DNA of 38,326 nucleotides from Candidatus Berkelbacteria bacterium CG_4_10_14_0_2_um_filter_35_9_33_12. GTDB taxonomy: Bacteria > Patescibacteriota > UBA1384 > GWA2-35-9. Below, piece after piece: positions 1-21,079 of the stretch. The notes beneath the pieces were generated by a model that worked only from the letters and a program-made list of their open reading frames with translations, had not been told where the DNA came from and did not search any database. The position numbers and the translations under genes are program-made. The DNA lies in NCBI GenBank assembly GCA_002793435.1, contig PFQF01000027.1, positions 1 through 38,326 of the forward strand, given 5' to 3'. Position 1 is the stretch's first letter, and each line of letters starts with the position of its first letter.

Positions 1-3000
1 TATAACCTGCCAATAACTGCTTCAATAAATACAGCGACTAAAGTAGCAACCGGCAGTTATTCTGTAATTCCAAATACAATAACTTCTCTTTTACTGAATA
101 CTGACTACGATTTAATTTTTTCTGCTTCAAGAAATTCTGTTAGCTGTCCGAGTGTTTCAATAACACAGGTGTTTAGAGTAACGGTTCAATCTCCAACCAT
201 TAGTTCATTTACCGCCAATCCGACATCGGTACAGATTGGCGACGATTCAACCAAATATCAAAGTTCGGCATTGAATTGGTCGGCGACAAATGCCGAAACG
301 ATGAAAATCGAAGCTTACAATGTTACAACCAGTAGCTGGGGATTAGTGTACACGATTCCATCTAATCAGTTTGCAGGTGGATCACATTCTTTGCAACCAA
401 CTGATTCAGTGATTAACCGGACGACCAAGAAAATTCAATTAAGAGTCGTGGCTACACGAATGAATGCGTTGGATGCGATAAAAACATTAGATATTCCAAT
501 TACGCTTGTTTCCTGTCCGACCCAAGCAGGGACGACAATTATTGCCGATGATGCGATTATTCGTAAACCGGGAGGAACGACGATTCGTTGGAGTTCAATT
601 AATGATCCGGATAGTATTGTTATTTCGTATTTAACTCCTCAAAATACTTTTCCTCGTGGAAATGCAAAAAATCCAAGTGGTAGTCAGTGGGTAGAACCAA
701 CGAGTGATGTAACTTACACAAATACGACTAAAAAAGCTTATTGTTCTGATAAAACGGCTAGCGTTTTCATTAAGGTTTTAGAGCCCTGCCCAAAAGTTGA
801 CTACTTCAGATTTAAAAATTATGCTTCGACAACAAAAGAGATTACTCCCGGAGAGCCAGTAACGATTGAATGGAATATTACCAATAATCCATCTCAAATT
901 CAACACACTATCAATAATGGAACAAGCTGGTCAGATGTGACTGCAACTGGCAGTTATTCTTGGAACGCTTATTCGGGAGGAATAGTAAAAATGCGTTACA
1001 AGAGGTCTGATTGTAATTCAGGCAATTGGCAAGAAAGTGGTCTGCTAACACTTAATATTGTAGCTCCACCACAGGCGCCAACAATTAATGGACCAAACGA
1101 TGGTACCGAATTTAACGCTAAACCAGCCAATGGAATTTTTAACTGGTCAAATGTTTCAAGCGAGGGATATATTATTGATATATATCAAACAAGTAACAAT
1201 AGCATTAATCCGATCGATGATAGATCAGTTAGTTCGACAAGTTTTAGTTGGTCAGATACCGATTGGGGGAGCTTAAGCGACACAGCTTACTCGTGGCGAG
1301 TTCGAGCGAATAGCTCAAAATTTACAGTTGCTAATGACGGTCATTGGGTTAATTTAACAACGAATGAGAAAATGGTTAACTATCCCAAAGCTTGGAGTAC
1401 TCCTCGTAATTTTGTAAAATTGACTTCCTTAGGGAGTTTTGGCATTACAAGTCCGGCTTCTGGCACAGTCAAAGCTATGCCTCCAGAAATAATTTGGACA
1501 AGTTCTGATTTTGCCACTAGCTATACAATTAAATTTACCGATACGACAAATAGTAGTGTTGTCCTAAGCCAAGACATTGACAGCGCTGGATTTCTAGCTC
1601 GTCGTTGGACGATCCCGCTAGGCGATTGGAAAGATAAATTTGTCATTGACAGAAATTATAATATCCAAGTAATTGCTAAACGGAATACATTGACCCGAAA
1701 TAATGGAAGCGGACAACAGACATTAATTAAAAAAGAATTATTATTAGAGTGTAAAAAATACATTGATCTTCCTACATTATTAAATAACGAAAAATCGGGA
1801 AGTTGCGAAACTGATTTAAGTTACAACCACAAACCGTTATTTAATTGGTATTCTCAATCTTCGCCGACTTCAATATTAGGGCAAATGCCTCCCGAAATTA
1901 CGCCAATTGAAGTCAAGTGGGTTAAAGGCGCAACAACTTATACGCACATTTTATCAAGCGACGATATCGCCAACGGAAAATATACTCCTCCAACTGATAT
2001 GTGGCGAAGCCTTGAAGCTGGGCTGGATTGGACAGTAACTATGTACGCTAAATGGAACGGTCAGGTAGTAATACAGAGCAATCCATATACAATTCGAGTG
2101 CCGATCGAAAACCCGGATTTAGTCAGTCCAATAAGTAAAATCTATTATTCAAAACCAGCCGATACCGAATTTATGTGGACAGACAGTCGGACTGACCAAA
2201 CTTATCAAATCTATTTTTATAAAGATGGATCGACGACCCAAAGTTTTATTCTCTCAACAACAGTCAACGGTCAAACTTATCTTCCATGGACAACCAGTGC
2301 TTGGGATGCAGTACCGAACGGAAATTACAAAATTAAAGTTAAACGAACTAACGATCCAGTGATTTATATGAGCGATGAAGGTTCTTTTACCAAAGCGCAA
2401 CTTACGGCTCCCGTTTTTTCCAGCACAGTGCCAAACGGTTCAATGTTTTTCCAAACTGCACCGGCAAACAATACATACAAATGGAATAGCGTAACCAATG
2501 CGTCCGATTATATCGTTCAATTAAAAAAAGGCGATAGCAGTTTTAGTTCAAATAATGTTTCTGAACCGTTGAAAAATACAACTGGAGAAAAAGAGATTGT
2601 TGTTTCTGGCACAACAATTGATTTCAACGCCAAATATAACGGACGAGCCACAACTCTTTGGTCGGAATTGGATAATGGGTTGTGGTATATGCGGGTTGCC
2701 GGCAGGGTCTATTCCGGACAGAAAAATAATTATGTTTGGTCAAATGTGCTTTATCTTGAAAAACAGACGCCAAATTTAACTTTACTCAATTCAGCTCCAT
2801 TCGACCGAGAACTTAAACCGCAATTTAAATTCGATCCGCAAGCGTTACCAGACGATTTGGAAGTTAACTTATACACAACCGCTGGTCCCCACACACTTAC
2901 CTCAATTAATATTGGTAGAAAAGTTGTACTTTTAGGAAAAAATAAGATTCAATTAGATAATTTTTCTTATACAGAAGAACAATGGCGCAATATATTTTAT

Positions 3001-6000
3001 GGCAGTTGGCAGGTTTATTATATTGTTGCAACCAAAGCCGATCATATTGAGCGAGCCAGAAGTAATACAATTACATTTAGTAAAGATTTGCCAAGTCAAA
3101 CTAACCCGACTTTGACAGTAAATAAAACAACAGCAATGGAGCAGGAAAGAGTTAAATTTACTCTTAATTATCCACGGTCTGAAGTGGCGTTCGATCATGC
3201 TCTACCTAGCACTACTCTAAGTCCATTTATTACAACCAATTCTCTTGAATTATTATTTTCTAATAACAATTTTGATCTGAATAGTATCTCTAGCACAGAT
3301 CTTGACGGTGGAGCGGTTGATATAGTCCAGAATAAAATTACTTGGAGCATTGACTCTAATGCTAAAGATGGAAAAGTTATTTGGATTCCGATGGGCAATT
3401 CAGACAATTGTAATGGCGAAACTACAGTTACATTGAACAAAACAATTACGCCTCAATTTGGCAGTGAAATTATAAACAATTCGAATAATGTTTCAGTTAT
3501 CTACGATTGTCCGACTGGAACATTTGTTTTTGATCCAACTAAGACAAAGAAAACTAGAAGTGGTGGTCCAAACACAGACAATATAAAAAAGGGTGATATT
3601 TTAACTTATAAAATTGAGTATGAAGGTACTTTTACAAAAGGTTCGGGGAGCGGTGGTGGGGGAGAGGCTACTCTGTTCGAAAAAATTAAAAATATTCCCG
3701 ATAGTATTATTCAAAAAATAGCCCAAACATACAAAAATGCCGGTCAAAAAATTGCACGCATAAAAACCAATCGAATAAAACTAGCCAAAGCTCAAGAATT
3801 GACAACAATTTATGCCAATATTGATGGGTCTAGCCATGACATAACTTACCTGACTGAAAGTGCCAGGGGAAAAAGTTTAATATTAGATGGCAGGTATGGT
3901 TTAGGTGGCGACTTTATTTTTTCAGGGAATTTAACTTTTGATATCCAGTCTTTGACTTTGCTTAGTGGTGCTAAAATTTCAGGCACTGGAAATTTAACTG
4001 TCAATGCTAACAATTTTATCAAAATTTGTCGATCATGCAGTCTCAAAGTTAAGGGTTATAGTGGAGGAAGAATGACGCAGTGTCAGGCAACAGGAGGTCG
4101 AGGAAGTAAACCTGGCGGTAGTTCGATTGCTTCTTCCCCATACCCTGCGCTATGTGGAATCGCTGGTAACGGTGGAGATTGGGATCAGGGTGGCGCCGGC
4201 GGTGGCGCCGGCGGTGGAGATCTCGGGGTTGGCGGTGGTGGGGGAAATATTGGTGGAGGGGGAGGAGCTTTTACATCTAATTTGGGGGGGTCTTGGAATT
4301 TAGGCGGTGGCGCCGCCGGTGTTGGTGGAAAGGGAGCGATCGGTGTTAATAAGGCTATCAATGGTCAATCTGGAAATGGAACTAGTGCTAACGATCAATT
4401 GCAAACATGGTTGGCTTTAGGTAAAAAACTAACTCAAGGTGGTGGTGGTGGCGCTGGAGGCGGAAACTATTCAGGAGATCATTCAATTAATGAAGGACGA
4501 TTTGGTGGAGGAATAATAAGTCTTAAAACAAATCAAAATGGGACCATTTTCACTAAGGGTTTAATTAGCAGTAAGGGCGATGACGGAGAATACAAATTGA
4601 TGGGAGGTACAACAAATAAAATAGGCGCCGGTGGCGCTGGCGCTGGCGGGAGTATTAATTTGGACGCTGGGAATATCTATATTTGTCCGACAGATAATAA
4701 TCTGAAGCCATTATCGATGTTTGATGCACGGGGTGGTGATTCAGGCAGAAAGGATTATTCGGGTCATTCTAATTATGCGCTTCGATCGGGCGCTGGCGGC
4801 GGTGGCTTAGTCTCATTAAAGGCGACTAAAGTAATTGAAGTTGGCGATAACAATGTCGGAGTTGGGGTTAAGAATGATCTTCAAACTCAATTAAATTCTG
4901 TAGTAGCTGGTGGCGGTAATTACTCTTCGGTCACCAGTAATAAAAGTGAAAACGGGATTGCTAATCTTGAAATTGATGGCACGACTGGTAATAATGATGC
5001 TTCTTGCTCGGACGGTTTTGATGAAACTAATTTACCTGACGAGCCATCAGTTTCATTATGGGTTAACGGGGAGGATGTGGATGTAACTAGTCTGCCAAGC
5101 GGAACTGAAATTAATTTGACTTGGACACAAGACGGGGCAAATGATTTGAAGCTAGTAACCAAGGTTGGCGAATCGGCTGAAACAACTCCTCAAGATGTCA
5201 CTGCTAGTACATCAATTGCTTCGTTTCCTTTAGAGGATGATATTTACTTTAAAATTACTGCCTCAAATGCCAGTGGTTCGACAAGTGATACGGTTAAGAT
5301 ATTTCAATACGGAAGCACCAATTTGGCGAAAGGTATTCACATTATTGACACGCCAACCAATCTTGTGTCTGCTACAGGAGAAAGCGGAGAATGGGATTCT
5401 TCCACACAACCGCTGATATTTGATTTTGATGAAAGTACAAATATTTTTAAAGGAGAAGTCAATATCGAATATATTGTTCCCAGTGATATTTGTAATAAAC
5501 CAGTTAATGAAAGATCTATAAAAAATGAGGCAACTTTAATTCCGTACTTGGGAACGTATGCGAGTAATAACAGCACGGACTCGCCGTCGACTATCGAAAC
5601 CCTGCCCGAAGATGTTCAGTGCGGAGTTTCGGTTGGCGGGAATGTCCGAGCTCACAACATCGATGACAGAAAAATAACCTTTAAGGATGAAATTCCGAGT
5701 TTGTTGATTGTTGGTGAAGATAGTTCGTTAAGCGATCCAGGAAAAGGTAATATTCAATTTCTTAAGTATAATGGTTTAATTGATGTTGATATGATTAAAA
5801 AGCGAATCAATCGACTTTTTAAAGAATCAGCCAAAGGAAGTCCAGCATTATCTGGTTCATCCACTCAAACAGGAATTTGGAGGGTTGAAGCTGGCAAAAC
5901 TATTGCTGGAAATTATAGTAAAAAAAATACTTTTATTGTTAAAAATGCTGATGATTCAATAACCATTGACAATTTAAATGCATTACAATCCGTTGGTATT

Positions 6001-6297
6001 ATTGCTAAAGATACAAATATTAACATTGAGGGAATTAATAAGAATATTGCGATTTTTGCTTATGATACGGATACATTAGATGATATTTGTGATGTTGATG
6101 GTAATTGTAAAAAAAATAAAGGTAATGTAACATTTATCGGGGGTGATGATATTAATTTTACCGGCGCCATCGTAGCTGAAAGTATTTCATTGGGAGATAA
6201 AACGGGTAATATTGATTGGTCATCGCAATTACAAACCTATGTTCCGGAAGGATTTTCAGAGATATTGAGTCCATTAATTTCAGAGAAAGCGCCATAA
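1..6297 (+). CDS. Giant secreted/surface repeat protein, 5'-partial (at least 2098 codons visible): Cys-bounded Ig-like modules, six FN3-like modules, Gly-rich beta-solenoid-like core, C-terminal Ig-like plus unknown domain
   Basis: The ORF track starts at GTG 169, but frame 1 has no stop from nt 1 to 168. The upstream peptide (..SVSCPSVSITQ) repeats the module-boundary motif seen later (LVSCPTQ, LEPCPKV), so the true start is upstream of the window. Stop is TAA at 6295-6297. No LPXTG motif or C-terminal TM is visible. Function is unknown. Confidence 0.85.
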   Translation, partial: YNLPITASINTATKVATGSYSVIPNTITSLLLNTDYDLIFSASRNSVSCPSVSITQVFRVTVQSPTISSFTANPTSVQIGDDSTKYQSSALNWSATNAETMKIEAYNVTTSSWGLVYTIPSNQFAGGSHSLQPTDSVINRTTKKIQLRVVATRMNALDAIKTLDIPITLVSCPTQAGTTIIADDAIIRKPGGTTIRWSSINDPDSIVISYLTPQNTFPRGNAKNPSGSQWVEPTSDVTYTNTTKKAYCSDKTASVFIKVLEPCPKVDYFRFKNYASTTKEITPGEPVTIEWNITNNPSQIQHTINNGTSWSDVTATGSYSWNAYSGGIVKMRYKRSDCNSGNWQESGLLTLNIVAPPQAPTINGPNDGTEFNAKPANGIFNWSNVSSEGYIIDIYQTSNNSINPIDDRSVSSTSFSWSDTDWGSLSDTAYSWRVRANSSKFTVANDGHWVNLTTNEKMVNYPKAWSTPRNFVKLTSLGSFGITSPASGTVKAMPPEIIWTSSDFATSYTIKFTDTTNSSVVLSQDIDSAGFLARRWTIPLGDWKDKFVIDRNYNIQVIAKRNTLTRNNGSGQQTLIKKELLLECKKYIDLPTLLNNEKSGSCETDLSYNHKPLFNWYSQSSPTSILGQMPPEITPIEVKWVKGATTYTHILSSDDIANGKYTPPTDMWRSLEAGLDWTVTMYAKWNGQVVIQSNPYTIRVPIENPDLVSPISKIYYSKPADTEFMWTDSRTDQTYQIYFYKDGSTTQSFILSTTVNGQTYLPWTTSAWDAVPNGNYKIKVKRTNDPVIYMSDEGSFTKAQLTAPVFSSTVPNGSMFFQTAPANNTYKWNSVTNASDYIVQLKKGDSSFSSNNVSEPLKNTTGEKEIVVSGTTIDFNAKYNGRATTLWSELDNGLWYMRVAGRVYSGQKNNYVWSNVLYLEKQTPNLTLLNSAPFDRELKPQFKFDPQALPDDLEVNLYTTAGPHTLTSINIGRKVVLLGKNKIQLDNFSYTEEQWRNIFYGSWQVYYIVATKADHIERARSNTITFSKDLPSQTNPTLTVNKTTAMEQERVKFTLNYPRSEVAFDHALPSTTLSPFITTNSLELLFSNNNFDLNSISSTDLDGGAVDIVQNKITWSIDSNAKDGKVIWIPMGNSDNCNGETTVTLNKTITPQFGSEIINNSNNVSVIYDCPTGTFVFDPTKTKKTRSGGPNTDNIKKGDILTYKIEYEGTFTKGSGSGGGGEATLFEKIKNIPDSIIQKIAQTYKNAGQKIARIKTNRIKLAKAQELTTIYANIDGSSHDITYLTESARGKSLILDGRYGLGGDFIFSGNLTFDIQSLTLLSGAKISGTGNLTVNANNFIKICRSCSLKVKGYSGGRMTQCQATGGRGSKPGGSSIASSPYPALCGIAGNGGDWDQGGAGGGAGGGDLGVGGGGGNIGGGGGAFTSNLGGSWNLGGGAAGVGGKGAIGVNKAINGQSGNGTSANDQLQTWLALGKKLTQGGGGGAGGGNYSGDHSINEGRFGGGIISLKTNQNGTIFTKGLISSKGDDGEYKLMGGTTNKIGAGGAGAGGSINLDAGNIYICPTDNNLKPLSMFDARGGDSGRKDYSGHSNYALRSGAGGGGLVSLKATKVIEVGDNNVGVGVKNDLQTQLNSVVAGGGNYSSVTSNKSENGIANLEIDGTTGNNDASCSDGFDETNLPDEPSVSLWVNGEDVDVTSLPSGTEINLTWTQDGANDLKLVTKVGESAETTPQDVTASTSIASFPLEDDIYFKITASNASGSTSDTVKIFQYGSTNLAKGIHIIDTPTNLVSATGESGEWDSSTQPLIFDFDESTNIFKGEVNIEYIVPSDICNKPVNERSIKNEATLIPYLGTYASNNSTDSPSTIETLPEDVQCGVSVGGNVRAHNIDDRKITFKDEIPSLLIVGEDSSLSDPGKGNIQFLKYNGLIDVDMIKKRINRLFKESAKGSPALSGSSTQTGIWRVEAGKTIAGNYSKKNTFIVKNADDSITIDNLNALQSVGIIAKDTNINIEGINKNIAIFAYDTDTLDDICDVDGNCKKNKGNVTFIGGDDINFTGAIVAESISLGDKTGNIDWSSQLQTYVPEGFSEILSPLISEKAP
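4189..4218. repeat. In-frame 12-bp tandem repeat (ggtggcgccggc x2 plus partial ggtgga) inside the Gly-rich segment of the giant gene
   Basis: Direct reading: 4189-4200 and 4201-4212 are identical, followed by ggtgga. The stretch encodes GGAGGGAGGG. Confidence 0.9.
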
Positions 6298-6325
6298 GAA
6301 TAAATTGTGGCTTGATTTTAGTTTT

Positions 6326-6352
6326 TATGTTATACATATGATATGTTATACT
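6326..6352 (+). promoter_or_regulatory. Possible tandem extended -10 elements (TGtTATACA / TGtTATACT) in a 16-bp direct repeat upstream of the pilus operon
   Basis: tatgttatac occurs at 6326-6335 and 6342-6351. Each copy reads TGnTATAC[A/T]. No convincing -35 is present. The site lies in the 89-bp gap between the giant gene stop and the pilN-like TTG start. Confidence 0.25.
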
Positions 6353-6386
6353 ATGATAGTAAATAATGTTTTAGGAGGGGAAAGGT

Positions 6387-6977
6387 TTGATTGACGAAAA
6401 TAATAATAACGAGCAAAAGGGATTTGTTAAATCTCTTGAGGTGCCGTTAATAGAAGAAAAAATCGGTCTTTTTCAGGTTGCAATGGAAATTTTGTTGTTG
6501 ATAACGATTGTTCAGTTTTTAGTAATTTTATTTACCACCACCCGATTGCATAGTGGTCTAGAACTATCAAAGTTAGAAATCGCTCAACTCGAGGAAAAAC
6601 TAAAAAATCCTCAATTAGTTCAGATTAAAGATCAGGTTGAAAATATTGGATCCCGAATTAAGCTTTTAGAATCAATTTTGGCAAAAAGTGAAGATTATAG
6701 CGATTTTTGGGAAGAAATTGAGCAAACTTTAGTTTCAGGGAGTGGTTATACTAGCATTACAATCGATAAAGATAAGACTGTAGTTTTAAGTGGTAAAACA
6801 ATCAATTATGAAGTTTTAGCTAAACTAATATCGAGTTTAAAATCTTCAAAAAAATTTACCGATATTAATTTAATCCAGTCGAGTAGTGATGAAAAAATAA
6901 AATCTTTTTCTTTAACGATGAAATATATTAAAGAAGAGGTTAAAAAAAGTCAAAATGAGCCAAGCAAAAAAGAGTAA
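6387..6977 (+). CDS. PilN-like type IV pilus alignment protein (bitopic: short cytoplasmic N-terminus, one TM, coiled coil, small alpha/beta domain)
   Basis: TTG start at 6387 is preceded by aggagggg (6373-6380). The architecture and position directly before a PilO-like gene and pilB fit PilN. The canonical PilM-binding INLLP-type N-terminal motif is not evident. Confidence 0.55.
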   Translation: MIDENNNNEQKGFVKSLEVPLIEEKIGLFQVAMEILLLITIVQFLVILFTTTRLHSGLELSKLEIAQLEEKLKNPQLVQIKDQVENIGSRIKLLESILAKSEDYSDFWEEIEQTLVSGSGYTSITIDKDKTVVLSGKTINYEVLAKLISSLKSSKKFTDINLIQSSSDEKIKSFSLTMKYIKEEVKKSQNEPSKKE

Positions 6978-7635
6978 TTTATCTTCGATAATCAGTTTTT
7001 TAATGTTTATTGCCTCGGTAGCAATCTGGTATTTTTTAATTCTACCTCAATTTGGCAAGTTTAAAGAGGCAAGTAATCAAGGTGCAATTTTAGGCGCAAA
7101 AGTTGAAGCGTTGACTAAAAATAATACGACCTTAGAATTATTAAAAAATCAGTTGACATCGACGCTTAACGATCAAAATAAACTTGACATTGCAATACCT
7201 AAAGAAACGCAAATTCCGGAAATTTTTATTACGGTTGAATCCTTAGCTCAAAAAACCGAAGTTGATGTAATTTCTATCAAGCCCGAGAATGAAGCAGTTG
7301 ATAATTTAATAAAAACAGTTATTGTCGTCGAAGCAGAATATCCAAATCTCAAGAATTTTATGCTTGGACTGACAAAAAATATTCGCCCAACTGTGACAGA
7401 AAGTTTTAAAGTGATTAAAAAAGAGGCAGAAGTATCAACCTCAACTAGTACTAGTGATGCTACCATTTCAGCTGAAACAAATAAAATCGAGACTTCTGGG
7501 CGTTCATTACAATCTGAAATTGTTGTCTATTTTGCGACTGCTCAAAAAAATACTGAGAAAAAATCTTCATCTGTCGAGACATCAAATAGTAATAAAGTAA
7601 CAACAAATAACGAGGAATTACACAATGCAGAATAA
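6955..7635 (+). CDS. PilO-like type IV pilus alignment protein (TM plus coiled coil plus C-terminal domain, Ser/Thr-rich tail)
   Basis: It overlaps the previous gene by 23 nt. It has an N-terminal TM (IISFLMFIASVAIWYFLILP), a coiled-coil segment, then a PilO-like pattern (IPEIFITVESLAQK..VVEAEYPNLKNFMLGL). Confidence 0.5.
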   Translation: MSQAKKSNLSSIISFLMFIASVAIWYFLILPQFGKFKEASNQGAILGAKVEALTKNNTTLELLKNQLTSTLNDQNKLDIAIPKETQIPEIFITVESLAQKTEVDVISIKPENEAVDNLIKTVIVVEAEYPNLKNFMLGLTKNIRPTVTESFKVIKKEAEVSTSTSTSDATISAETNKIETSGRSLQSEIVVYFATAQKNTEKKSSSVETSNSNKVTTNNEELHNAE

Positions 7636-7885
7636 AAATAATTTAACTTTTGGATTAATATTAATTCTTATCTCACTTGGTTTTTATCTTTATCTATTCA
7701 TTAGTTATAAACCTAAAGTAATTGAAGCTTTTGGCAGCGATACTGGTATTGTGCAAGTTGATGATAAAATATTTTCAAAAAATGTTTTGGAGGGTCTGAG
7801 AGAAAGGGAAGTTAATGGTCAATTACCAGTCGTGTTAAATCAGGATGATCACAGTGGAGAAAGTCCTTTTACCAAAGTAGAATAG
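7625..7885 (+). CDS. Small single-pass membrane protein of unknown function within the pilus operon
   Basis: ATG at 7625 with GAGGA 8 nt upstream. It overlaps the previous gene by 11 nt. One N-terminal TM (LTFGLILILISLGFYLYLFI). Confidence 0.5.
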   Translation: MQNKNNLTFGLILILISLGFYLYLFISYKPKVIEAFGSDTGIVQVDDKIFSKNVLEGLREREVNGQLPVVLNQDDHSGESPFTKVE

Positions 7886-7893
7886 TTAGTTTT

Positions 7894-10128
7894 ATGATTT
7901 TAAATACCAATTCGTTTTTAGATTATCTTTTTAAGCATCAAGTAATTAACAAAGCTGAAGCTTCTTTTTTAGAACAAAAATTTGGAGATATTTCTAAGAT
8001 CGTCGAGCTCATTGTTAACAAAAAAATTACTAACTATGAGCAAATATCTAAAATTTCAGCCGAAATATTAAATATTCCGTTTGCGAAACTTGAAGGAAGG
8101 GAAGTTGATTTAGGTATTTTATCGATTATTCCAGTTGATCTTTCAATAAAATATGGTTTGGTTGCCTTTGAAAAAGCTGGTAATGAAATAAAAGTAGCGG
8201 TGGCAAGACCTTATTTATTGCAAAGTTCTGATATTGGAGTCGCTGGATGGCTAAAAAATATTGATAAAGGGATTTACAGATTTTCAATTGTTGCCAGTAC
8301 AATCAATGATGTTGCTAACTTGATAAAAAATTATCAACAAAAAATTGATGCAGTCGTTCTAAGTAGCCAAAAAAAAGATAATCAAAATCAAATCATTACT
8401 TCTAATCTACCGACAATGGATTTATCCAATAGAGAGATTGATTTTGAAACAATATCAATATTTCCTGAAGAAATTGTTCGAAAGTATCAAGTAGTAGTGA
8501 TTGAAAAAGTATCAGATTCTTCACTTCGAGTTGGATTGATTGACCCAAACGATGAAAATACGCAAAAAACATTAAAATTTATTGAAAATAAAAATAATAT
8601 TTTTATTGAACAATATAAGATTACTCAAACTGATTTTGATCGTTTAGTTAGAAATTATCATCCTAAAATACAACCAACAGTTGAGGAAAAAGAAATAATA
8701 GGAAAAACTAACACGCAAATTCGAGGGGATGAAGTAAAATACCCAATAAAACCAATCTCAAAAAAGAACGATATAGGTCCAGTTAATATCAGTTTGGACG
8801 AAATTAAAACGATTCCGTCTACTAGTCCAGATGTACTTGCTGGGAAAACGACAATCAATGAAGAAGATAAGGGCTTAGAAGAAACTAACTTGGATAAATT
8901 TTTAGGCAAACCAGTAACAACGGTTGAAGAACTTTCGGAAAATATGAAGTCCGGTCAAATTCCTAAAATAGTCGCATCGTTAATTAGTTTTAGTATCATT
9001 ATTAAAGCCTCTGATATTCACATTGAGCCACAAAAAGATTTGTTAAGGATTAGATTTAGAGTCGAAGGTGAGTTGCGTGAATACTTAAAATTACCTATTT
9101 CTTTGCACCCGCTAATTTCATCTAGGATAAAAATATTATCCGGCTTAAAAATTGACGAACAAAGAATTCCTCAAGATGGTCGCTATGATGGAATTGCCAA
9201 TGGGCACGAAATTGATATTCGTGTTTCATCTCTACCGACAATTCATGGTGAAAAAATAGTTATGCGTGTTCTAGACAAAGATGCACAAAATTATCAGCTT
9301 GATAATCTCGGTTTAAATAATATTGATCAAAAGAGATTAACAAATGAAATTAATAAACCGTGGGGGATGGTTCTTGCGACTGGTCCAACAGGGTCGGGGA
9401 AAACAACCACTTTATATGCAGTTTTAAATAAAATATTAACTCCAAAAATAAATGTTATCACTCTGGAAGACCCGGTTGAATATCAAATTGAGGGAATTAA
9501 TCAAGTTCAAGTCAAACCTAAAATTGGTTTTTCTTTTGCGGAAGGATTGAGAAGTATTTTGAGGCAGGATCCAAACATAATTATGGTGGGTGAAATTCGG
9601 GATAGCGAAACTGCCAGTTTAGCGACTCAATCGGCTTTGACTGGTCATTTGGTACTATCAACTTTACACACCAATTCATCTTCGGGTGCTTTGCCAAGAT
9701 TAGTTAATATGGGGGTTGAGCCGTATTTAATTACTTCAGCTGTCAATGCCATTGTTGCTCAGAGATTAATCAGAAAATTGTGCCAAGATTGCCGAGTTGA
9801 AAAGGTAATGCCTGACGCCGAGTTAGAAAAGATTAATGAGATGATCAAAGATAAAGTAAAAGTTGATTTAAAAACTACTAAATTCTATGATAAAGGGGAA
9901 GGTTGTGATAAATGTCATGATGGATTTTTCGGCAGAGTTGGCTTGTATGAAATATTAGTTATGAGTGATAAAATTGAGCAAGCGATAATTACTAATAAAC
10001 CGGCGACCGAAATTGAAACTATTGCTAGAAACGAAGGTATGATTACACTTCTACAAGATGGTATAATAAAAGTATTGAAGGGTTTAACTTCGTACGAAGA
10101 GGTTTTAAAAGTAGCTATGGATAAATAA
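7894..10128 (+). CDS. pilB: Type IV pilus assembly ATPase PilB (GspE family) with an extended N-terminal region
   Basis: Intact Walker A GPTGSGKTT, Asp box ITLEDPVEY, Walker B DPNIIMVGEIRD, His box TGHLVLSTLHTN, and a tetracysteine motif CQDC...CDKC. At 744 aa it is longer than the usual roughly 560 aa. Confidence 0.93.
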   Translation: MILNTNSFLDYLFKHQVINKAEASFLEQKFGDISKIVELIVNKKITNYEQISKISAEILNIPFAKLEGREVDLGILSIIPVDLSIKYGLVAFEKAGNEIKVAVARPYLLQSSDIGVAGWLKNIDKGIYRFSIVASTINDVANLIKNYQQKIDAVVLSSQKKDNQNQIITSNLPTMDLSNREIDFETISIFPEEIVRKYQVVVIEKVSDSSLRVGLIDPNDENTQKTLKFIENKNNIFIEQYKITQTDFDRLVRNYHPKIQPTVEEKEIIGKTNTQIRGDEVKYPIKPISKKNDIGPVNISLDEIKTIPSTSPDVLAGKTTINEEDKGLEETNLDKFLGKPVTTVEELSENMKSGQIPKIVASLISFSIIIKASDIHIEPQKDLLRIRFRVEGELREYLKLPISLHPLISSRIKILSGLKIDEQRIPQDGRYDGIANGHEIDIRVSSLPTIHGEKIVMRVLDKDAQNYQLDNLGLNNIDQKRLTNEINKPWGMVLATGPTGSGKTTTLYAVLNKILTPKINVITLEDPVEYQIEGINQVQVKPKIGFSFAEGLRSILRQDPNIIMVGEIRDSETASLATQSALTGHLVLSTLHTNSSSGALPRLVNMGVEPYLITSAVNAIVAQRLIRKLCQDCRVEKVMPDAELEKINEMIKDKVKVDLKTTKFYDKGEGCDKCHDGFFGRVGLYEILVMSDKIEQAIITNKPATEIETIARNEGMITLLQDGIIKVLKGLTSYEEVLKVAMDK

Positions 10129-10130
10129 TT

Positions 10131-11192
10131 ATGCAATCAACCAATATTTCAATCAGGATTTTAGATAGTGCCATTGAGCAAAATGCTTCAGATGTTCTTT
10201 TATTAGTTGGGGCTCCGCCGTTGCTTAGGATTGATGGACGAATTTATGCGATTTCAGGATTAAATCCGCTTGATAATTCAACCAACGAATTAATTTTAAA
10301 AAATTTGGTCGGAGAAAATAAAATTAGAGATTTAGAATCAAAAAAAGAAGTTGATTTCTCTTTGTCGTATAAAAATTTTCGAATTCGTGGTTATGCTTAT
10401 TATCAAAAACAAACAGTTGCGATTAATTTGAGAATTATTTCTCAAGAAATTAAAAGTTTTAGCGAATTAGGTCTCCCTCCAATTATTGAAAAATTAGCTA
10501 GTAGTAACCAGGGTTTATTAATTATTTCCGGTCCAACCGGACACGGAGTTTCAACCACTTTGGCTTCAATTATCAATCATATTAATTCTAATTTTAATCG
10601 TCATATAATTACACTCGAAAATCCAATTGAATATTTATTTCCATACAAAAAGTCAATTATTTCTCAACGAGAAATTGGGCGAGATGTAATTTCTTATTGT
10701 GAAGGGTTAAAAAATATTACCAAAGAAGATCCAGATGTGATTATGCTTAGCGAATTGAGAGATAATGATGCGCTAGAAATGGCTATAGAGTTAGCTGAAA
10801 TTGGGCATCTAGTAATTATTTCGAGCAATGCAATGTCAATTAGCCAAGCAATTGATAAAATAATTGATAATTTTGAACCAAATAAACAAGACGCAATGTG
10901 GCAAACGGTAGCGAATAGCTTGTTGGGGATTATTTCACAACGTTTAATCCCTAAAGCTAATAAAGGTAGAGTTTTAATTGCTGAAGTAATGATGAATAAT
11001 CCAGCTATAAAATCGTTGATTAAAGAAGGCAAAACTAATCAAATTGAAAATATTATTGCTACTTCGGCTGACGAAGGCATGATGTCGATTGATCGAGTTT
11101 TAGCTTCATTGGTATCAAAAGGAGAAGTTAAAATTGATACAGCGCTATCGTGGGCAAGAAATCCAAAAACCTTAAAAGAACTGATTTATTAG
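10131..11192 (+). CDS. pilT: PilT-family retraction ATPase homologue with degenerate catalytic motifs
   Basis: Full-length colinearity with PilT (ASDVLLLVGAPPLLRIDG, DPDVIMLSELRD, NPAIKSLIKEGK). However, Walker A reads GPTGHGVSTT (Val140 at 10548-10550 replaces the Lys). The His box reads GHLVIISSNA (Asn233 at 10827-10829 replaces the His). Confidence 0.85.
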   Translation: MQSTNISIRILDSAIEQNASDVLLLVGAPPLLRIDGRIYAISGLNPLDNSTNELILKNLVGENKIRDLESKKEVDFSLSYKNFRIRGYAYYQKQTVAINLRIISQEIKSFSELGLPPIIEKLASSNQGLLIISGPTGHGVSTTLASIINHINSNFNRHIITLENPIEYLFPYKKSIISQREIGRDVISYCEGLKNITKEDPDVIMLSELRDNDALEMAIELAEIGHLVIISSNAMSISQAIDKIIDNFEPNKQDAMWQTVANSLLGIISQRLIPKANKGRVLIAEVMMNNPAIKSLIKEGKTNQIENIIATSADEGMMSIDRVLASLVSKGEVKIDTALSWARNPKTLKELIY

Positions 11193-12257
11193 TTGATTAT
11201 GAATTTAAATATTAATATATCATGGTTTGATAGAGTTACGATAAAAGATAAAGCTTTTTTTGCTGAACAAGTTGGAACAATGATTCAGTCTGGGCTACCA
11301 TTAGTCCAAGCGATTGATGTAATTAGTCAACAAACTAAAAAAGAAAAATTTAAAAAAGTTTTAGAAGATATTCATAAGGATATTGAAACTGGCAAAACTT
11401 TTTCTGAATCAATTAAAAAACATCCAGAAATTTTTGACAGAATATTTTCTAATATGGTTATGGCTGGAGAAGCATCGGGAAAACTGGATGAAGCGTTAGT
11501 TGAATTGGCTCGCCAAATAAACCGTAATAATAATTTTATCTCTAAAATTAAAGGGTCGCTTTCGTATCCAATTTTTGTGATTGTGGTAATGTTGGGAGTA
11601 GGTATTTACGCTACGGTCAAAATAATTCCGTCTTTAACTGGGGTTTTTAAAGAAGCCAATGTGACCCTTCCTTGGTCAACCAAACTAGTTATGGCGCTTT
11701 CCGATTTTATGATTCATTATTGGTATTTATTAATTTTGATAATAGTTGTAGCCGGTGTTGTTGTATACTATTATTTAAAAACCGACAATGGAAGATGGAA
11801 TCGGGATCTATTATTAACTAAAGAACCAACCAAATTAGCTACTAAAATCTATATGGCAAGATTTTCTCGGACATTGGGATCGTTGTTAAAAAATGGCATT
11901 CCGATCATTGAAGCAGTTGATATTGTTTCAGAAACTATCAATAATTTAGTGATTGAAAAATCATTAAAAAATGTAATTCAGGAATTAGAAAAAGGTATCC
12001 CGATGAGTCAACCGATTAAAGAAGATAAAAATTTTCCGATCTTTATTTCGCAGATGATGGCAGTTGGGGAACAAACCGGTCGAGTCGATCAAATTTTGTT
12101 ATCATTGGCTGATTATTTTGAACAAGATGTCGAAAATAATATTAAAAATATATCCACATTGTTTGAACCAATAATAATTGTTATAATTGGTATAGGAGTC
12201 GCTTTTCTGATATTTTCGATTATTCTGCCAATCTACTCAATTTCACAAGGAGTCTAG
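11193..12257 (+). CDS. pilC: Type IV pilus platform protein PilC (GspF family)
   Basis: Two GspF-type repeats with three TM segments, and typical motifs (FSxMVxAGEASGxLD, ISQMMAVGEQTGRVD). TTG at 11193 directly follows the pilT stop. An alternative ATG lies at 11199. Confidence 0.9.
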   Translation: MIMNLNINISWFDRVTIKDKAFFAEQVGTMIQSGLPLVQAIDVISQQTKKEKFKKVLEDIHKDIETGKTFSESIKKHPEIFDRIFSNMVMAGEASGKLDEALVELARQINRNNNFISKIKGSLSYPIFVIVVMLGVGIYATVKIIPSLTGVFKEANVTLPWSTKLVMALSDFMIHYWYLLILIIVVAGVVVYYYLKTDNGRWNRDLLLTKEPTKLATKIYMARFSRTLGSLLKNGIPIIEAVDIVSETINNLVIEKSLKNVIQELEKGIPMSQPIKEDKNFPIFISQMMAVGEQTGRVDQILLSLADYFEQDVENNIKNISTLFEPIIIVIIGIGVAFLIFSIILPIYSISQGV

Positions 12258-12321
12258 GATAAATTACCAATTACTACATCTCTCTGGTCGAAGAGATGAT
12301 AAGAAAAAATATGGAGGAAAT

Positions 12322-12723
12322 ATGTTTAACAAAAAAAACAAGGGATTTACATTAATTGAATTGTTAGTGGTTATTGCTATTATTGGTATTTTGGCGGGAA
12401 TTGTGGTGGTTGCAGTGGGTAATTCAAGAAATAAAGCGACTAATGCAAAAGTAATTGCAAGCTTAGAAAATATTTGTAAAACGATTGCAATTGATGCCGT
12501 ATCTTCATCAACAGGTTTAAACACTTTGACAAATGGAGCGTCGGGAACAAGTGGTTCATTACTGAAAGCTTTGGGAATTACTACTCTTCCTACTGGAATC
12601 ACAACAACACCAGCAACTCCTGCTACCAGAGCTGCGGCAATAACTAGTGTGAAGGGAACGTATACTGATGGATCCGGTATCACCAAAACATGCAATTCTA
12701 GTAGTAATTGGTCAGTAATTTAA
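12322..12723 (+). CDS. pilA: Major type IV pilin (class III signal peptide)
   Basis: GGAGG at 12313-12317. The leader is MFNKKNKG followed by FTLIELLVVIAIIGILA with Glu5. It sits immediately before the prepilin peptidase gene. Confidence 0.9.
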   Translation: MFNKKNKGFTLIELLVVIAIIGILAGIVVVAVGNSRNKATNAKVIASLENICKTIAIDAVSSSTGLNTLTNGASGTSGSLLKALGITTLPTGITTTPATPATRAAAITSVKGTYTDGSGITKTCNSSSNWSVI

Positions 12724-12745
12724 ATCAATATTATAATTAGAATTT

Positions 12746-13456
12746 GTGATCGAATTGTTTGGTTTTGTGTTCGGAGCGGTTATCTCATCTTATCTTTATA
12801 CAACAGTCGAAAGAAATGTAGATAGCAAAAACAAGACGCTTTTTTCTCGGTGTAATAAATGTAAAAAGCGTCTTGTTTGGTATGAATTGGTGCCATTATT
12901 AAGTTATTTAATTCAACTCGGAAAATGTCGGAAGTGTAAAAATATTATTCCAATTCGCTATTTTTTGCTTGAGCTTATTTTTGGGCTGATATTTTTATTC
13001 TTTTATTTATTTTTTAATAATTTGATTGAAGCAATTGGTTTGTGTTTAATCTTTTCAATACTATTTTATATTTCTTATTATGACTTTTTAACTCAAGAAA
13101 TTTCTGAAATCGCACTAGCGTTATTATTTGTAGTAATATTAATTTCTTTATTTGTACTTAATAATATTACTATATTAAATCTTTATGGTGCTTTGGTATC
13201 AGGAGGAATAATTTTCCTTTTTTATTATCTATCTAAAGAAAAAGCAATGGGCTTTGGTGATGTCGAGTTAGTGCTAGCTCTTGGTTTTTGGATTGGTTCA
13301 GAATGGTCATTATATTTTATTTTTTTAGCTTTTATTTTGGGTGGAATTTATGGCGCAATCGTACTGTTATTTAAAATCTCTAAACTAAAAGACCGAGTTG
13401 CCTTCGGTCCGTTTTTAGCCCTCTCATCATTAATAATTTACATTTTCTCCATATAA
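12746..13456 (+). CDS. pilD: Prepilin peptidase / N-methyltransferase PilD (peptidase A24)
   Basis: GTG start. It has the CNKC...CRKC cysteine pairs, polytopic TMs, the GFGDVEL (GxGD) motif and a C-terminal FGPFLA motif. Confidence 0.9.
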   Translation: MIELFGFVFGAVISSYLYTTVERNVDSKNKTLFSRCNKCKKRLVWYELVPLLSYLIQLGKCRKCKNIIPIRYFLLELIFGLIFLFFYLFFNNLIEAIGLCLIFSILFYISYYDFLTQEISEIALALLFVVILISLFVLNNITILNLYGALVSGGIIFLFYYLSKEKAMGFGDVELVLALGFWIGSEWSLYFIFLAFILGGIYGAIVLLFKISKLKDRVAFGPFLALSSLIIYIFSI

Positions 13457-13457
13457 A

Positions 13458-13492
13458 CTGTTACATTTCTTCGATGTATGTAACGGTTTATA
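13458..13492 (+). terminator. Hairpin plus T-rich tail after pilD (possible intrinsic terminator or attenuator)
   Basis: ctgttacat (13458-13466) pairs with atgtaacgg (13478-13486), giving a 9-bp stem with one G-U. It is followed by tttataattt. Confidence 0.4.
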
Positions 13493-13523
13493 ATTTATTA
13501 AATCAATGATAAAATATATGTAG

Positions 13524-14006
13524 ATGAAAAAAACACCATTAAAAATGGGCTTTTCTTTGATAGAGCTATTAGTAACTATTTCAATTCTTGTTTTATTAAC
13601 CGGTTTGACAATTCCATCTTATCGAAGTTACCAACGCAAAACCGGACTTGATTATTATAGTAAATTGATAAAAAACGAAATCCAATTTGCTCGATCGTAT
13701 TCATTATCTCCACCTACGGAACATATTGGCTTTGATATGTTTGGAGTCACGATCAACACAACCAACAATACTTTTCAAAAGATAAAAAAATCAAGTGACA
13801 CTGGTGATGTTATTACAATTGAATCACCATTAATTATTGATGGTGATTATACATTGGCAACTACTAGTAGTCCTCCCGAAATATATTTTGAAGTTGGAAG
13901 AAATGGAGAAATAAGCAGTGAGGTTGTTGTTGAATTAACAGAAAAAAACCTTAGTCAAACAAAAACAATAACCGTCAATCAATCAGGATTAATAACTATA
14001 AATTAA
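13524..14006 (+). CDS. Minor pilin / pseudopilin (GspH/FimU-like)
   Basis: Prepilin N-terminus MKKTPLKMG followed by FSLIELLVTISILVLL. Confidence 0.8.
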   Translation: MKKTPLKMGFSLIELLVTISILVLLTGLTIPSYRSYQRKTGLDYYSKLIKNEIQFARSYSLSPPTEHIGFDMFGVTINTTNNTFQKIKKSSDTGDVITIESPLIIDGDYTLATTSSPPEIYFEVGRNGEISSEVVVELTEKNLSQTKTITVNQSGLITIN

Positions 14007-14476
14007 TGTTCATTATTAATAAAAAAAAATCAGCCTTTGGGCTAATTGAAACGATAATTGCATCCGGGATTTTAATTGTTGTGGTTGGAGCATTAGCTTT
14101 AGTTTCAAGTGTAGTTCTAAAATCGTCTCGCCAAACAAGCGAAGATTTAATGGCAAATTATTTAATCTATGAAGTTTTTGAATCAGCACGGCAAATTAGA
14201 GGTACAAATTATATTGATGAAAATTCTGACACTAGTTGGGATAATGGATTGACGATCGGGGATGTAAAATTAAATTTTGCTGATCCATTAATACCAAGTT
14301 TTGGTGTTTCGACGGAGGAAAAAATCAATGATGTGCGAGGAATTGACTACACAAGAAAAATTAATCTTAAAAAAATATCGACTGACAAAATAAAAATTAC
14401 AGTTACAATCACATGGGGTGATAGTAAAGAAAGAAAATCAGCCATTATATTAACTAATTATGAACAAGGTTTTTAG
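14006..14476 (+). CDS. Minor pilin (PilV/GspI-like)
   Basis: TAATG overlap with the previous gene. The N-terminus is KKKSA followed by FGLIETIIASGILIVV (Ala at -1, Glu5 present). Confidence 0.7.
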   Translation: MFIINKKKSAFGLIETIIASGILIVVVGALALVSSVVLKSSRQTSEDLMANYLIYEVFESARQIRGTNYIDENSDTSWDNGLTIGDVKLNFADPLIPSFGVSTEEKINDVRGIDYTRKINLKKISTDKIKITVTITWGDSKERKSAIILTNYEQGF

Positions 14477-15053
14477 GAATAAAAAAAGAAACGGTTTTAC
14501 TTTAGTCGAAGTTCTAGTTGCTATGACAATATTTTCGATGGTAGTGGTTATGTCTGCGACAACTTTTACTTCTTCGTCAAATGTGAATAGAAAAATTAGT
14601 GGTTCAAGCTTAATCCAAGAAAAAATTTCAGTTTTTCTTGATCAAATGTTGAGTGAAATACGACAGGCAAAATACGCATATTTTGAAACAGATTCATCTA
14701 AAAATAGACTAACAATTATTATGCCCGACCCGAACTTACCAAATAATGAAATAACCAAAATTTATCAAGTCAATAAGACCAGCGGGAAGATCACGGGAAT
14801 TACAGTTAAAAAAAATAGTGAAACGACTCAAGATATTGATATGAATGGAGTTGAGATTAAAGAGTTTGTATTTTCTGGCAATCCTGTCAGTAACGGAATA
14901 GATGGTAGTGTAAATAATGAAAAAACTATAATAAATTATCCATTTATTCGAGTTAATGCGATTTTTGCTTCGAGTATTGATAAAACTGTGCCGGACTATG
15001 AGATTAATACAATTATGACATTACGCAATTTCAAAAAAGATTATAGTGATTAA
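14460..15053 (+). CDS. Minor pilin (PilW/GspJ-like)
   Basis: 17-nt overlap with the previous gene. The N-terminus is NKKRNG followed by FTLVEVLVAMTIFSMVV. Confidence 0.75.
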   Translation: MNKVFRNKKRNGFTLVEVLVAMTIFSMVVVMSATTFTSSSNVNRKISGSSLIQEKISVFLDQMLSEIRQAKYAYFETDSSKNRLTIIMPDPNLPNNEITKIYQVNKTSGKITGITVKKNSETTQDIDMNGVEIKEFVFSGNPVSNGIDGSVNNEKTIINYPFIRVNAIFASSIDKTVPDYEINTIMTLRNFKKDYSD

Positions 15054-15834
15054 AAAATTTAACCATAAAAAAGGTTCATCATTGATTATTGCAGTTCTTT
15101 TAATTGGTGTTGTTTCAGTTGTTTCTTTCGGGGTGAGTAGTTTGACGATGAATGATATGAAATTACACCGTCTATTTGTTGGTTCGGGTGAAAGTTATTA
15201 CGGAGCTGAAAGCACTATGGAGGAAGCGTTGCTTGAAGTAAAAAATGATCGTAATTATTCAACGACTGGACCAGTTAATTCAGCGATAAACGGGGGGGAT
15301 TTAACCGCAAATCACATTGCTACATATTATGGCGATTATTTTTATATTGAAAAAATTAAAAAAGACGATTTTGTTGATGTGCTATTGGGGGTGGATTATG
15401 CAACCGGAGATGAATTATGTATTGCACGATTTGATACAAATGATCCAATTATTCAAATAACCGAAAACGGAGGAGGTGGGGTACTTAATCGTACTAATAT
15501 ATACCCAGTATCTAATCCCGCCCAGTACGCAATAATCAATAATGATCCAGTTTCAATAAGAATAAATTTTATTGGACCAGAAGTTAATAATCTTTATATC
15601 AAATCAACAGACGATAACTGTTCAAACATAGACATAAGTACTCTAGAAAAACTTAAGAATAGCATTATTGGATTAAACAAAAAATACGATATTGATACTG
15701 GCAGTTTAACAATCAAGGCGACTGGGACTTACAAAAATTTAAACCGCCAATTGCAAGCGACGATTGATAGAAAAAGTGGCACCTTGCTTAATATCTTTGA
15801 CTTTACTCTTTACTCAATTGGTGATATAGACTAA
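15046..15834 (+). CDS. Large minor pilin lacking Glu5 (PilX/GspK-like)
   Basis: GTG start and 8-nt overlap with the previous gene. The N-terminus is HKKG followed by SSLIIAVLLIGVVSV, with no Glu at +5, as in GspK-type tip pseudopilins. It is the largest of the four. Confidence 0.55.
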   Translation: MIKKFNHKKGSSLIIAVLLIGVVSVVSFGVSSLTMNDMKLHRLFVGSGESYYGAESTMEEALLEVKNDRNYSTTGPVNSAINGGDLTANHIATYYGDYFYIEKIKKDDFVDVLLGVDYATGDELCIARFDTNDPIIQITENGGGGVLNRTNIYPVSNPAQYAIINNDPVSIRINFIGPEVNNLYIKSTDDNCSNIDISTLEKLKNSIIGLNKKYDIDTGSLTIKATGTYKNLNRQLQATIDRKSGTLLNIFDFTLYSIGDID

Positions 15835-19827: not shown

Positions 19828-19831
19828 AAAA

Positions 19832-20041
19832 TTATCTTGAGATAAACGGCATTAGAGCTAAAAAACGAGCTCTTTTGATTGTTTTTGCTAGTTCTTTCTG
19901 ATGCTTAGAACAGACGCCAGAATATTTTTTGGCTTTTATTTTTGCCCAGTTAGTAGTGAATTTTTTTAAAAACAAACTATCAAAAATATCAATATTTTCA
20001 ATATTATGGCGACAAAAATAACATTTTTTTTGTATTTTCAT
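19832..20041 (-). CDS. rpsR: 30S ribosomal protein S18
   Basis: CYFC...IDIFD...LKKF....KI......G.C.KHQKELAKTIKRARFLALMP. It is part of the conserved rpsF-ssb-rpsR arrangement. Confidence 0.9.
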   Translation of the reverse strand: MKIQKKCYFCRHNIENIDIFDSLFLKKFTTNWAKIKAKKYSGVCSKHQKELAKTIKRARFLALMPFISR

Positions 20042-20054
20042 AATTTATTCAAAC

Positions 20055-20528: not shown

Positions 20529-20540
20529 GTTTATTCCTCT

Positions 20541-21035: not shown

Positions 21036-21079
21036 ACTAGAATAATATACTATAAAAATCTCTCGTGTGCAAGGGGCTT

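Follow-up and report, generated by a model that had tools for sequence, protein, structure and literature searches.

The gene at the start of a 38,326-nucleotide (nt) stretch of DNA from Candidatus Berkelbacteria bacterium CG_4_10_14_0_2_um_filter_35_9_33_12 (GenBank assembly GCA_002793435.1, contig PFQF01000027.1; this whole stretch is referred to below as the window) encodes a giant protein and precedes a type IV pilus (T4P) gene cluster. We found that the conserved unit of this protein, as delimited by sequence alignment, is a core of ~800–1,000 amino acids (aa), represented in the window by the last ~850–970 residues. The core defines a very small, uncharacterised family of Patescibacteria, whose genes lie directly upstream of pilN in every relative recovered. 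Judging from gene neighbourhoods, the family is dedicated to, or inherited with, one type of T4P cluster, and the giant protein probably represents a surface or adhesion protein dedicated to the pilus. As to its specific role, we tentatively favour, at somewhat below an even chance, an exported accessory protein dedicated to the pilus, i.e., an adhesin analogous to PilY1 and unrelated to the PilY1/PilC family. Outside a handful of cultivated Saccharibacteria, for which type IV pili are indispensable, little is known about how ultra-small Patescibacteria recognise and hold their hosts, and the locus described here is a concrete candidate for host attachment in an uncultivated lineage.

A small protein family linked to pilN

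The core common to the relatives starts at about residue 1130 of the window protein. An exhaustive phmmer search with residues 1130–2098 against 1.84 billion representative proteins returned only seven matches, namely one fragment of the protein itself and six relatives from Patescibacteria; the query was a single sequence, and remoter family members may have escaped. Two of the relatives, P0002 (matching at 66%) and P0003 (48%), are C-terminal fragments, and P0005 (32%) is partial. The three complete relatives are P0006 (33%, 985 aa) and two proteins detected at E ~1e-5, P0007 (779 aa) and P0008 (815 aa), the latter from 'Candidatus Berkelbacteria bacterium Licking1014_7'. The automatic NCBI name of P0005, 'glycine-rich cell wall structural protein 1.8-like', mirrors only its glycine composition. 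A profile search with the alignment of the C-terminal module returned only the self fragment, and family-pattern scans of the genome-representative collection found no relative.

Among the loci of all six relatives (L011–L016), the family gene is located directly 5' of pilN on the same strand and, where the contig permits, pilN is followed by pilO, an ORF (open reading frame) of ~85 aa, pilB, pilT, pilC, a pilin gene, pilD and minor pilin genes. The upstream neighbours vary, with a 172-aa ORF in L015 and inserted methyltransferase, Band_7 and AbiEii genes in L016, both loci being situated downstream of the same tRNA cluster. No family member was found in any of 80 other T4P loci fetched via PilB, under either strict or relaxed thresholds; this set included the nearest loci, from Microgenomates, Roizmanbacteria and Shapirobacteria, with 50–53% PilB identity. 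A first-pass annotation of the window had raised the question of whether related genomes conserve a giant Gly-rich protein next to pilN/O-pilB-pilT-pilC: the adjacency to pilN is indeed conserved in six out of six relatives, whereas the giant size is not. Since the complete relatives have only 779–985 aa, it is the core, and not gigantism, that is conserved and pilus-linked.

The core diverges together with the pilus proteins, showing 27–61% identity where PilN shows 31–87%. At long range the identities are 27–33% for the core, 31–39% for PilN/PilO and 45–54% for PilB, whereas at short range the core diverges faster than PilN (61% vs 87%; 45% vs 75%), as expected of an exposed protein.

In all complete relatives, the initial Met is followed by a short basic tail and a single hydrophobic helix of ~19–21 residues (KD19 2.4–2.5). 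The N-termini of P0006, P0007 and P0008 lack the prepilin residues Gly-1/Glu+5 and have no match to N_methyl (PF07963), both of which are seen in the pilins of the cluster itself. These relatives are therefore predicted to be Sec-exported or signal-anchored proteins rather than prepilins. A pilin-like N-terminus, one of the features that the first-pass annotation had proposed to look for, was thus not seen in the complete relatives, the start of the window protein itself being beyond the available sequence.

Extent and integrity of the giant gene

Frame 1 of the window is open without interruption from the first base to a stop codon at 6295–6297, spanning 2,098 codons. Scaffold L001 (GCA_002772415.1, PCSP01000006.1), which is 99–100% identical to the window in the overlap, adds 1,360 nt (454 residues) on the 5' side, and the frame remains open, through an N-gap, to the first base of this scaffold. 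This gives a giant protein of at least ~2,552 aa, whose N-terminus lies beyond the available sequence. This agrees with the first-pass annotation, according to which the protein would exceed the 2042 aa of its listed ORF; the upstream extension that it had proposed yielded the additional 1,360 nt and stopped short of the N-terminus. The window ORF makes up at least the 3' two-thirds of this genuine gene. Public contigs with the same locus, of which more than ten were retrieved via the adjoining PilN, all end inside the giant gene, and metagenome scans with codon-degenerate probes found no further 5' extension.

An assembly artefact or repeat collapse was ruled out, as the giant gene contains no DNA repeats. 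It should be noted that the ORF is intact in all five strain-variant contigs that were translated, and that the ratio of nonsynonymous (dN) to synonymous (dS) divergence is ~0.2 in the diverged patches described in the next section, which likewise argues for a genuine gene. The GC content of the giant gene (positions 1–6000) is 38–42%, compared with 30–33% elsewhere in the window; Gly codons partly account for the raised GC in positions 3000–6000, and raised GC is also present in positions 1–3000.

Strain variation

Four strain variants (L003, L007, L008 and L009) carry a PilN identical to that of the window and show near-zero differences outside two mosaic patches (Table 1), including over 2–9 kb of pilus genes. 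Patch 1 contains ~120 nt differences and a 4-aa indel between near-identical flanks, with dS of ~1.0–1.2 and dN of ~0.23, whereas dS in the flanks is at most 0.006. Patch 2 has 74 differences, with dS of 0.47 and dN of 0.08. The high dS values (0.5–1.2), the dN/dS ratio of ~0.2 in both patches and the flank dS of at most 0.006 indicate that the patches are recombination tracts from diverged alleles and not a product of hypermutation. A diversity-generating retroelement was ruled out by the indels, the saturated dS, the dN/dS of ~0.2 and the absence of a nearby reverse transcriptase; the RVT_3/RNase_H match at 15845 corresponds to RNase HI. The ends of metagenome contigs cluster at the patches, and the assemblies therefore break in the giant gene. 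Such systematic breakage implies that the gene is under-represented and mis-annotated in databases.

Architecture of the N-terminal array

The N-terminal array comprises at least 1,480 residues (454 in L001 and residues 1–1030 of the window protein). Self-BLASTP revealed a three-module super-repeat of ~260 aa in tandem, with 28% identity over 259 columns (E = 1e-20); its first copy is located upstream, in L001, and its second copy within positions 1–1068 of the window. Further downstream, the first-pass annotation had recognised six FN3-like modules. Five of the six corresponding segments (M1–M5) are indeed homologous repeats, scoring 8.5–33.8 bits in a leave-one-out test with hidden Markov models (HMM), against a shuffle maximum of at most 10.7, whereas homology of M6 to M1–M5 was not demonstrable in this test (2.2 bits). 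No Ig, FN3 or other Pfam domain was detected in the array scanned alone at E<=10, and a single-sequence AlphaFold2 (AF2) model of residues 1–1135 was uninformative (mean pLDDT 30.9). With zero Pfam or NCBIfam matches in any part of the protein, the Ig-like and FN3-like labels originally given to these modules are to be taken as plausible descriptions of the array and not as findings. The array is lineage-specific, with the extra sequence of at least 1,700 aa inserted after the presumed N-terminal helix and ahead of the core, and it grew by tandem duplication of ~100-aa modules that have since diverged.

Architecture of the conserved core

The whole giant protein has no match in Pfam, NCBIfam or among PDB sequences, and the same holds for its segments at a Pfam threshold of E<=10; a full-length search with a word-index protein method returned nothing, probably because it was swamped by Gly-rich words. 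The phmmer alignments to P0006 begin at query residue 156, and the part of P0006 equivalent to residues 1130–1268 has a sub-threshold match to the DUF11 repeat (E 0.025). On the basic linker of the same region (positions 3616–3819, residues ~1206–1273), a match to PilS_N, a family of type IVb pilins, was judged to be probably due to chance (E 0.054; 14 bits against a gathering threshold, GA, of 22).

The following Gly-rich region is plausibly solenoid-like, as judged from the AF2 model. Glycine amounts to 40% of residues 1401–1500. Residues 1269–1355 were modelled as β structure (pLDDT 75–85) and residues 1498–1618 as short strands at regular spacing, whereas the most Gly-rich stretch (residues 1356–1497) was left unmodelled, with pLDDT below 50. 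Of the Gly-rich solenoid-like core described in the first-pass annotation, the glycine richness was thus confirmed, and the solenoid fold is plausible.

For the C-terminal half as a whole, the mean pLDDT of the AF2 model is 60.7, and when this C-terminal model was compared by Foldseek with PDB and with viral models, no match reached E<=0.001. Conservation within the core is lowest in the two predicted β-sandwich modules, which show 13–26% identity to the distant relatives and whose best Foldseek matches were to FN3, PKD and Ig folds at E of only ~0.08. The last ~140 residues form the best-conserved segment outside the Gly-rich region (31–42% identity in the distant relatives). The C-terminal module, best modelled in its centre, has 22 invariant columns in the family alignments A1 and A2 and ends in an invariant P-x-G-F-S...E-x-A motif; an invariant pair of cysteines is located at C1831/C1874 in window numbering. 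This module of P0005 matches DUF7305 (PF23981) with 28.5 bits, just above the GA of 27, and P0007 shows a weak match of 15.9 bits, both covering only profile positions ~113–183 of 185, i.e., the last ~70, whereas the C-terminal module of the window protein itself has no match to DUF7305 even at E<=10. By sequence comparison the module therefore appears to be distantly DUF7305-like. A literature search found no publication mentioning this domain.

Among the 2,552 available residues there is neither an LPXTG-like motif nor a hydrophobic segment of transmembrane (TM) strength, and the C-terminus is hydrophilic (…ISEKAP*) without an anchor, in agreement with the first-pass annotation, which had reported no sortase motif or C-terminal anchor.

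Transcription signals upstream of pilN

The giant gene and pilN are separated by 89 bp (6298–6386), a region without any Rfam match to a riboswitch or other known RNA. The terminator-like hairpin over the stop codon folds no better than shuffled sequences (z = -0.65). The tandem duplication in this gap yields two extended -10-like elements, TGTTATACA and TGTTATACT, and the match of the gap to the σ70 consensus is only 9/12. Each relative has a single near-consensus promoter at the corresponding place before pilN, matching at 12/12 positions in L015 and L016, at 11/12 in L012 as well as L013, and at 10/12 in both L011 and L014, and followed by a GGAGG ribosome-binding site. Based on these motifs, the pilus genes probably start their own transcript 5' of pilN. 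The conserved promoter makes co-transcription with the giant gene doubtful, and the latter is better regarded as a conserved neighbour of the pilus genes than as a demonstrated member of their operon.

In L015, a perfect TTGACA-N17-TATAAT promoter and pilN are separated by a GC-rich, strongly structured leader of 140 nt (positions 12378–12517; minimum free energy of -78.7 kcal/mol for a 208-nt stretch). Rfam contains no match to this leader, which may be a regulatory RNA.

Possible function and alternative explanations

PilY1 and PilC1/PilC2 are non-pilin adhesins associated with the tip of type IVa pili in Pseudomonas, Neisseria and Myxococcus. Modular minor pilins with grafted domains are a second known solution, exemplified by PilB and PilC of Streptococcus sanguinis and by ComZ of Thermus, which carries a β-solenoid. 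In the explanation that we tentatively favour, a Sec-exported non-pilin protein would act as a pilus-associated adhesin. Its conserved C-terminal module would dock on the pilus, either on a tip complex of the four minor pilins or on the ectodomains of PilN/PilO, while the variable N-terminal region, whose length ranges from 0 to more than 1,700 aa across the family, would be the exposed, target-contacting part. In the window species, this region has grown into the array of duplicated ~100-aa modules, which exceeds 1,700 aa and contains allelic patches exchanged between strains. Export, physical association with the pilus, C-terminal docking and adhesion are features that we infer. An extracytoplasmic location is suggested by the basic tail and helix of the relatives, the invariant Cys pair and the lack of any other TM segment. 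Three observations speak for the PilY1-like reading: conservation rises towards the C-terminal end, the cluster encodes four minor pilins but no PilY1, and the N-terminal region is variable and recombining. It is also consistent with the role of T4P in host binding by Patescibacteria (PMC12206443, PMC10633639), including the Saccharibacteria PilX2, a minor pilin that carries a large additional domain, has a non-canonical signal and was proposed to be an adhesin (PMC12206443).

Similar to PilY1 and PilC1/PilC2, the giant protein is a large protein encoded in a T4P cluster, is probably a non-pilin with a Sec-type N-terminus, to judge from the relatives, and combines a conserved C-terminal with a variable N-terminal part, and the cluster contains four minor pilins, the normal partners of PilY1. 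Unlike PilY1, it does not match the β-propeller family PF05567 (full length at E<=1, segments at E<=10), Foldseek found no propeller, its core is Gly-rich and β-rich, and its gene is located 5' of pilN and not among the minor pilin genes. It resembles the modular minor pilins, such as PilX1/PilX2 of Saccharibacteria, in carrying large extra binding domains that would be pilus-borne, the location of the giant protein on the pilus being presumed; in contrast to them, the complete relatives lack Gly-1/Glu+5 and N_methyl, and the conserved element is C-terminal instead of an N-terminal pilin module. A long array of ~100-aa modules, a distinct terminal region and length variation driven by duplication are shared with the RTX (LapA/SiiE) and LPXTG fibrillar adhesins. 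Unlike RTX adhesins, the giant protein has no match to HemolysinCabind (PF00353), the profile of the GGxGxDxUx nonapeptide repeats, despite its Gly richness, and no type I secretion system (T1SS) genes were found among the window ORFs scanned; it also has no BIg or FN3 Pfam match, LPXTG motif or C-terminal anchor. The defining features of PilY1, pilins (checked in the relatives), LPXTG adhesins, RTX adhesins and PilM were each looked for and not found, and the giant protein was therefore not assigned to any of these families.

Several observations weigh against the adhesin interpretation. No adhesive, lectin or vWA domain and no known fold was found in the profile and Foldseek searches. The gene is at the pilN end of the cluster and not among the minor pilin genes, where pilY1 usually lies, and the conserved strong promoter before pilN means that co-expression is not guaranteed. 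The N-terminal features were read from the relatives alone, and the family sample is small, with six relatives, several of them partial. Finally, with ~19–21 residues the helix exceeds the usual length of signal peptides that are cleaved, and it could instead anchor the protein permanently in the membrane, which would favour a different explanation, namely a fibrillar adhesin anchored in the membrane and inherited along with the pilus without being part of it.

This anchored-fibril explanation appears to us clearly less probable than the pilus-associated adhesin and, nevertheless, the most credible of the alternatives. According to it, the helix would be a signal-anchor, the array a stalk of variable length, and the Gly-rich and C-terminal regions a distal head, resembling the N-terminally retained RTX-type adhesins; the cell would be drawn in by the pilus, with the giant protein making the close contact. 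Indeed, the helix of the relatives has TM strength and length (~20 residues) like that of the bitopic PilN and PilO, the expansion is placed between anchor and conserved core as in stalk-plus-head adhesins, the promoters are separate, and a two-step model of pilus tethering followed by close-range adhesins has been proposed for Saccharibacteria (PMC12206443). However, a host-binding head should be the most variable part of such a protein, yet conservation is highest in the distal C-terminal module; a stalk is missing altogether from the short relatives; and the fact that the gene strictly adjoins pilN in every relative points to a closer tie than common regulation.

A bolder version of the pilus-associated adhesin, which we regard as speculative and rather improbable, is that the family represents a new class of pilus partners, related neither to PilY1 nor to pilins and held at the tip via the DUF7305-like module, with the recombining N-terminal array determining the host cell of a Berkelbacteria-like episymbiont. 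If so, a re-assortable host-range determinant would be hard-wired to a pilus locus in the Candidate Phyla Radiation (CPR). Even in the simpler form, an adhesive partner of this pilus would mean that the PilY1-type division of labour between a conserved dock and a variable binder arose independently, and it would offer a means of tracing host-range variation in metagenomes, besides giving DUF7305 its first functional context.

PilM is a cytoplasmic protein with an actin-like ATPase fold. The position of the family gene, always directly before pilN, pilO and a small bitopic ORF, is the slot usually taken by pilM in such operons, which raises the possibility that the giant protein is a structural part of the pilus machine acting with PilN/PilO, such as an extracytoplasmic ring, a conduit or an element crossing the cell wall or S-layer. 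We consider this unlikely. In its favour, no pilM was found among the window ORFs scanned or within 10 kb on each side in L015 and L016, and the long-range divergence rate of the core equals that of PilN/PilO. By comparison, PilM is a normal constituent of T4P clusters in the CPR (PMC6744442). The gene order in Roizmanbacteria loci such as L019 is pilM-pilN-pilO, and the PilM profile (PF11104) matched a Roizmanbacteria PilM taken as positive control and gave no match in the giant protein. However, PilM is cytoplasmic and the giant protein is predicted to be extracytoplasmic, so that a like-for-like replacement is impossible; a variable insertion of more than 1,700 aa and mosaic patches between strains would be unexpected in a machine part; and pilM may be encoded elsewhere, given that only the window and the 10-kb flanks of L015 and L016 were covered.

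We consider it very unlikely that the protein is a cargo or exoprotein released via a machine resembling T4P or the type II secretion system (T2SS), or a structural protein of the cell-wall or S-layer type. Giant genes are reported to adjoin T2SS/T4P-like loci in Omnitrophota (bioRxiv 10.1101/2023.11.21.568195), for whose giant proteins such a release has been suggested, and the automatic name of P0005 points to a cell wall protein. On the other hand, this name is driven by composition, neither enzymatic nor SLH nor cell-wall-binding domains were detected in the Pfam and NCBIfam scans, a general envelope component would have to be much commoner than this family, and no homology to the Omnitrophota proteins was found, none having been tested for. 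The 'Archaeovorin'-type giant genes of Omnitrophota resemble the present case in that a very large multidomain extracellular protein is linked to a pilus or T2SS-like locus in an ultra-small, probably host-dependent bacterium (bioRxiv 10.1101/2023.11.21.568195); they differ from it in phylum, in the much larger size of the proteins and in the presence of a secretin (gspD) in the locus, whereas here the linked unit is only ~850 aa. The least probable explanation is adjacency by descent in one small clade without functional meaning: only six relatives are known, all from one clade of Patescibacteria, synteny could be phylogenetic inertia and pilN has an independent promoter, yet the adjacency is kept down to 27–33% identity while the upstream neighbours change (L015, L016).

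The first-pass annotation had presented the locus as an undescribed giant-adhesin/T4P module. The family is indeed uncharacterised and linked to T4P genes, and this strict linkage is apparently unreported in the literature that we searched, whereas the concept itself has precedents in the Saccharibacteria PilX2 and the Omnitrophota giant genes.

The pilus gene cluster and other genes of the window

The features of the giant gene and the pilus cluster are listed in Table 1. The identification of PilN, PilO, PilB, PilT, PilC, a prepilin, PilD and N_methyl pilins confirmed that the genes following the giant gene after 89 bp form a co-directional T4P cluster, as initially proposed. PilB has 744 aa with MshEN and T2SSE domains, and the major prepilin is canonical (MFNKKNKG|FTLIELLVV). 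Three of the minor pilins possess Glu5 and canonical or near-canonical prepilin N-termini, two with G|F and one with A|F. The fourth (15046–15834) is a PilX/GspK-like protein of 262 aa with the N-terminus KKG|SSLIIAVLL, which lacks Glu5 and has no Pfam or NCBIfam match. No member of the PilY1/PilC family was matched among the ORFs of the T4P cluster (6387–15834) or the larger ORFs scanned across the 38-kb window, which supports the earlier statement that the pilus locus lacks a PilY1/PilC1-type tip adhesin.

Table 1. Coordinates of the features of the giant gene, the pilN upstream region and the pilus gene cluster in the window
Feature	Position	Strand	Basis
Giant gene, 3' part (2,098 codons + stop)	1..6297	+	Open frame, L001 extension, intact in strain variants
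Cys-Pro-delimited modules of ~100 aa, including the second copy of the super-repeat	1..1068	+	Self-BLASTP; no Pfam domain
Six Trp-motif modules M1–M6, ~95–120 aa each (residues 357–1030)	1069..3090	+	Leave-one-out HMM
Mosaic patch 1 (residues ~863–990)	2590..3000	+	L003/L007/L008/L009 vs window
DUF11-like β module, then basic helical linker (residues 1130–1268)	3388..3804	+	phmmer, start of shared region
Mosaic patch 2 (residues ~1253–1340)	3741..4260	+	Variant L009 only
Gly-rich, β-rich, plausibly solenoid-like core (residues 1269–1640)	3805..4920	+	Composition, family alignment, AF2
Two predicted β-sandwich modules (residues 1683–1768, 1777–1873)	5047..5619	+	AF2 strands, pLDDT 60–78
C-terminal module, ~225 aa (residues 1874–2098)	5620..6294	+	Alignments A1/A2, AF2 pLDDT 70–86
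Weak terminator-like hairpin over the stop codon, then T-rich tract	6291..6311	+	7-bp stem, 3 GC pairs
16-nt tandem duplication (TATGTTATACATATGA x2.1), candidate pilN promoter	6326..6358	+	TRF
pilN (6387–6977), pilO (6955–7635), 86-aa single-TM ORF (7625–7885)	6387..7885	+	Pfam PilN, PilO
pilB, pilT, pilC, major prepilin, pilD	7894..13456	+	Pfam T2SSE/MshEN, T2SSF, N_methyl, Peptidase_A24
Four minor pilins	13524..15834	+	Pfam and N-terminal inspection

The pilus cluster is followed on its 3' side by the genes for RNase HI and groES/groEL. Positions 21521–23515 contain an ORF of 664 aa without any Pfam or NCBIfam match, which represents another uncharacterised large protein. In the Berkelbacteria relative L016, an 841-aa protein with an N-terminal TM helix and a faint T2SSG match is encoded 3' of the position of the major pilin (19402–21927); it contains internally duplicated pseudopilin-like modules and may be a giant modular pilin.

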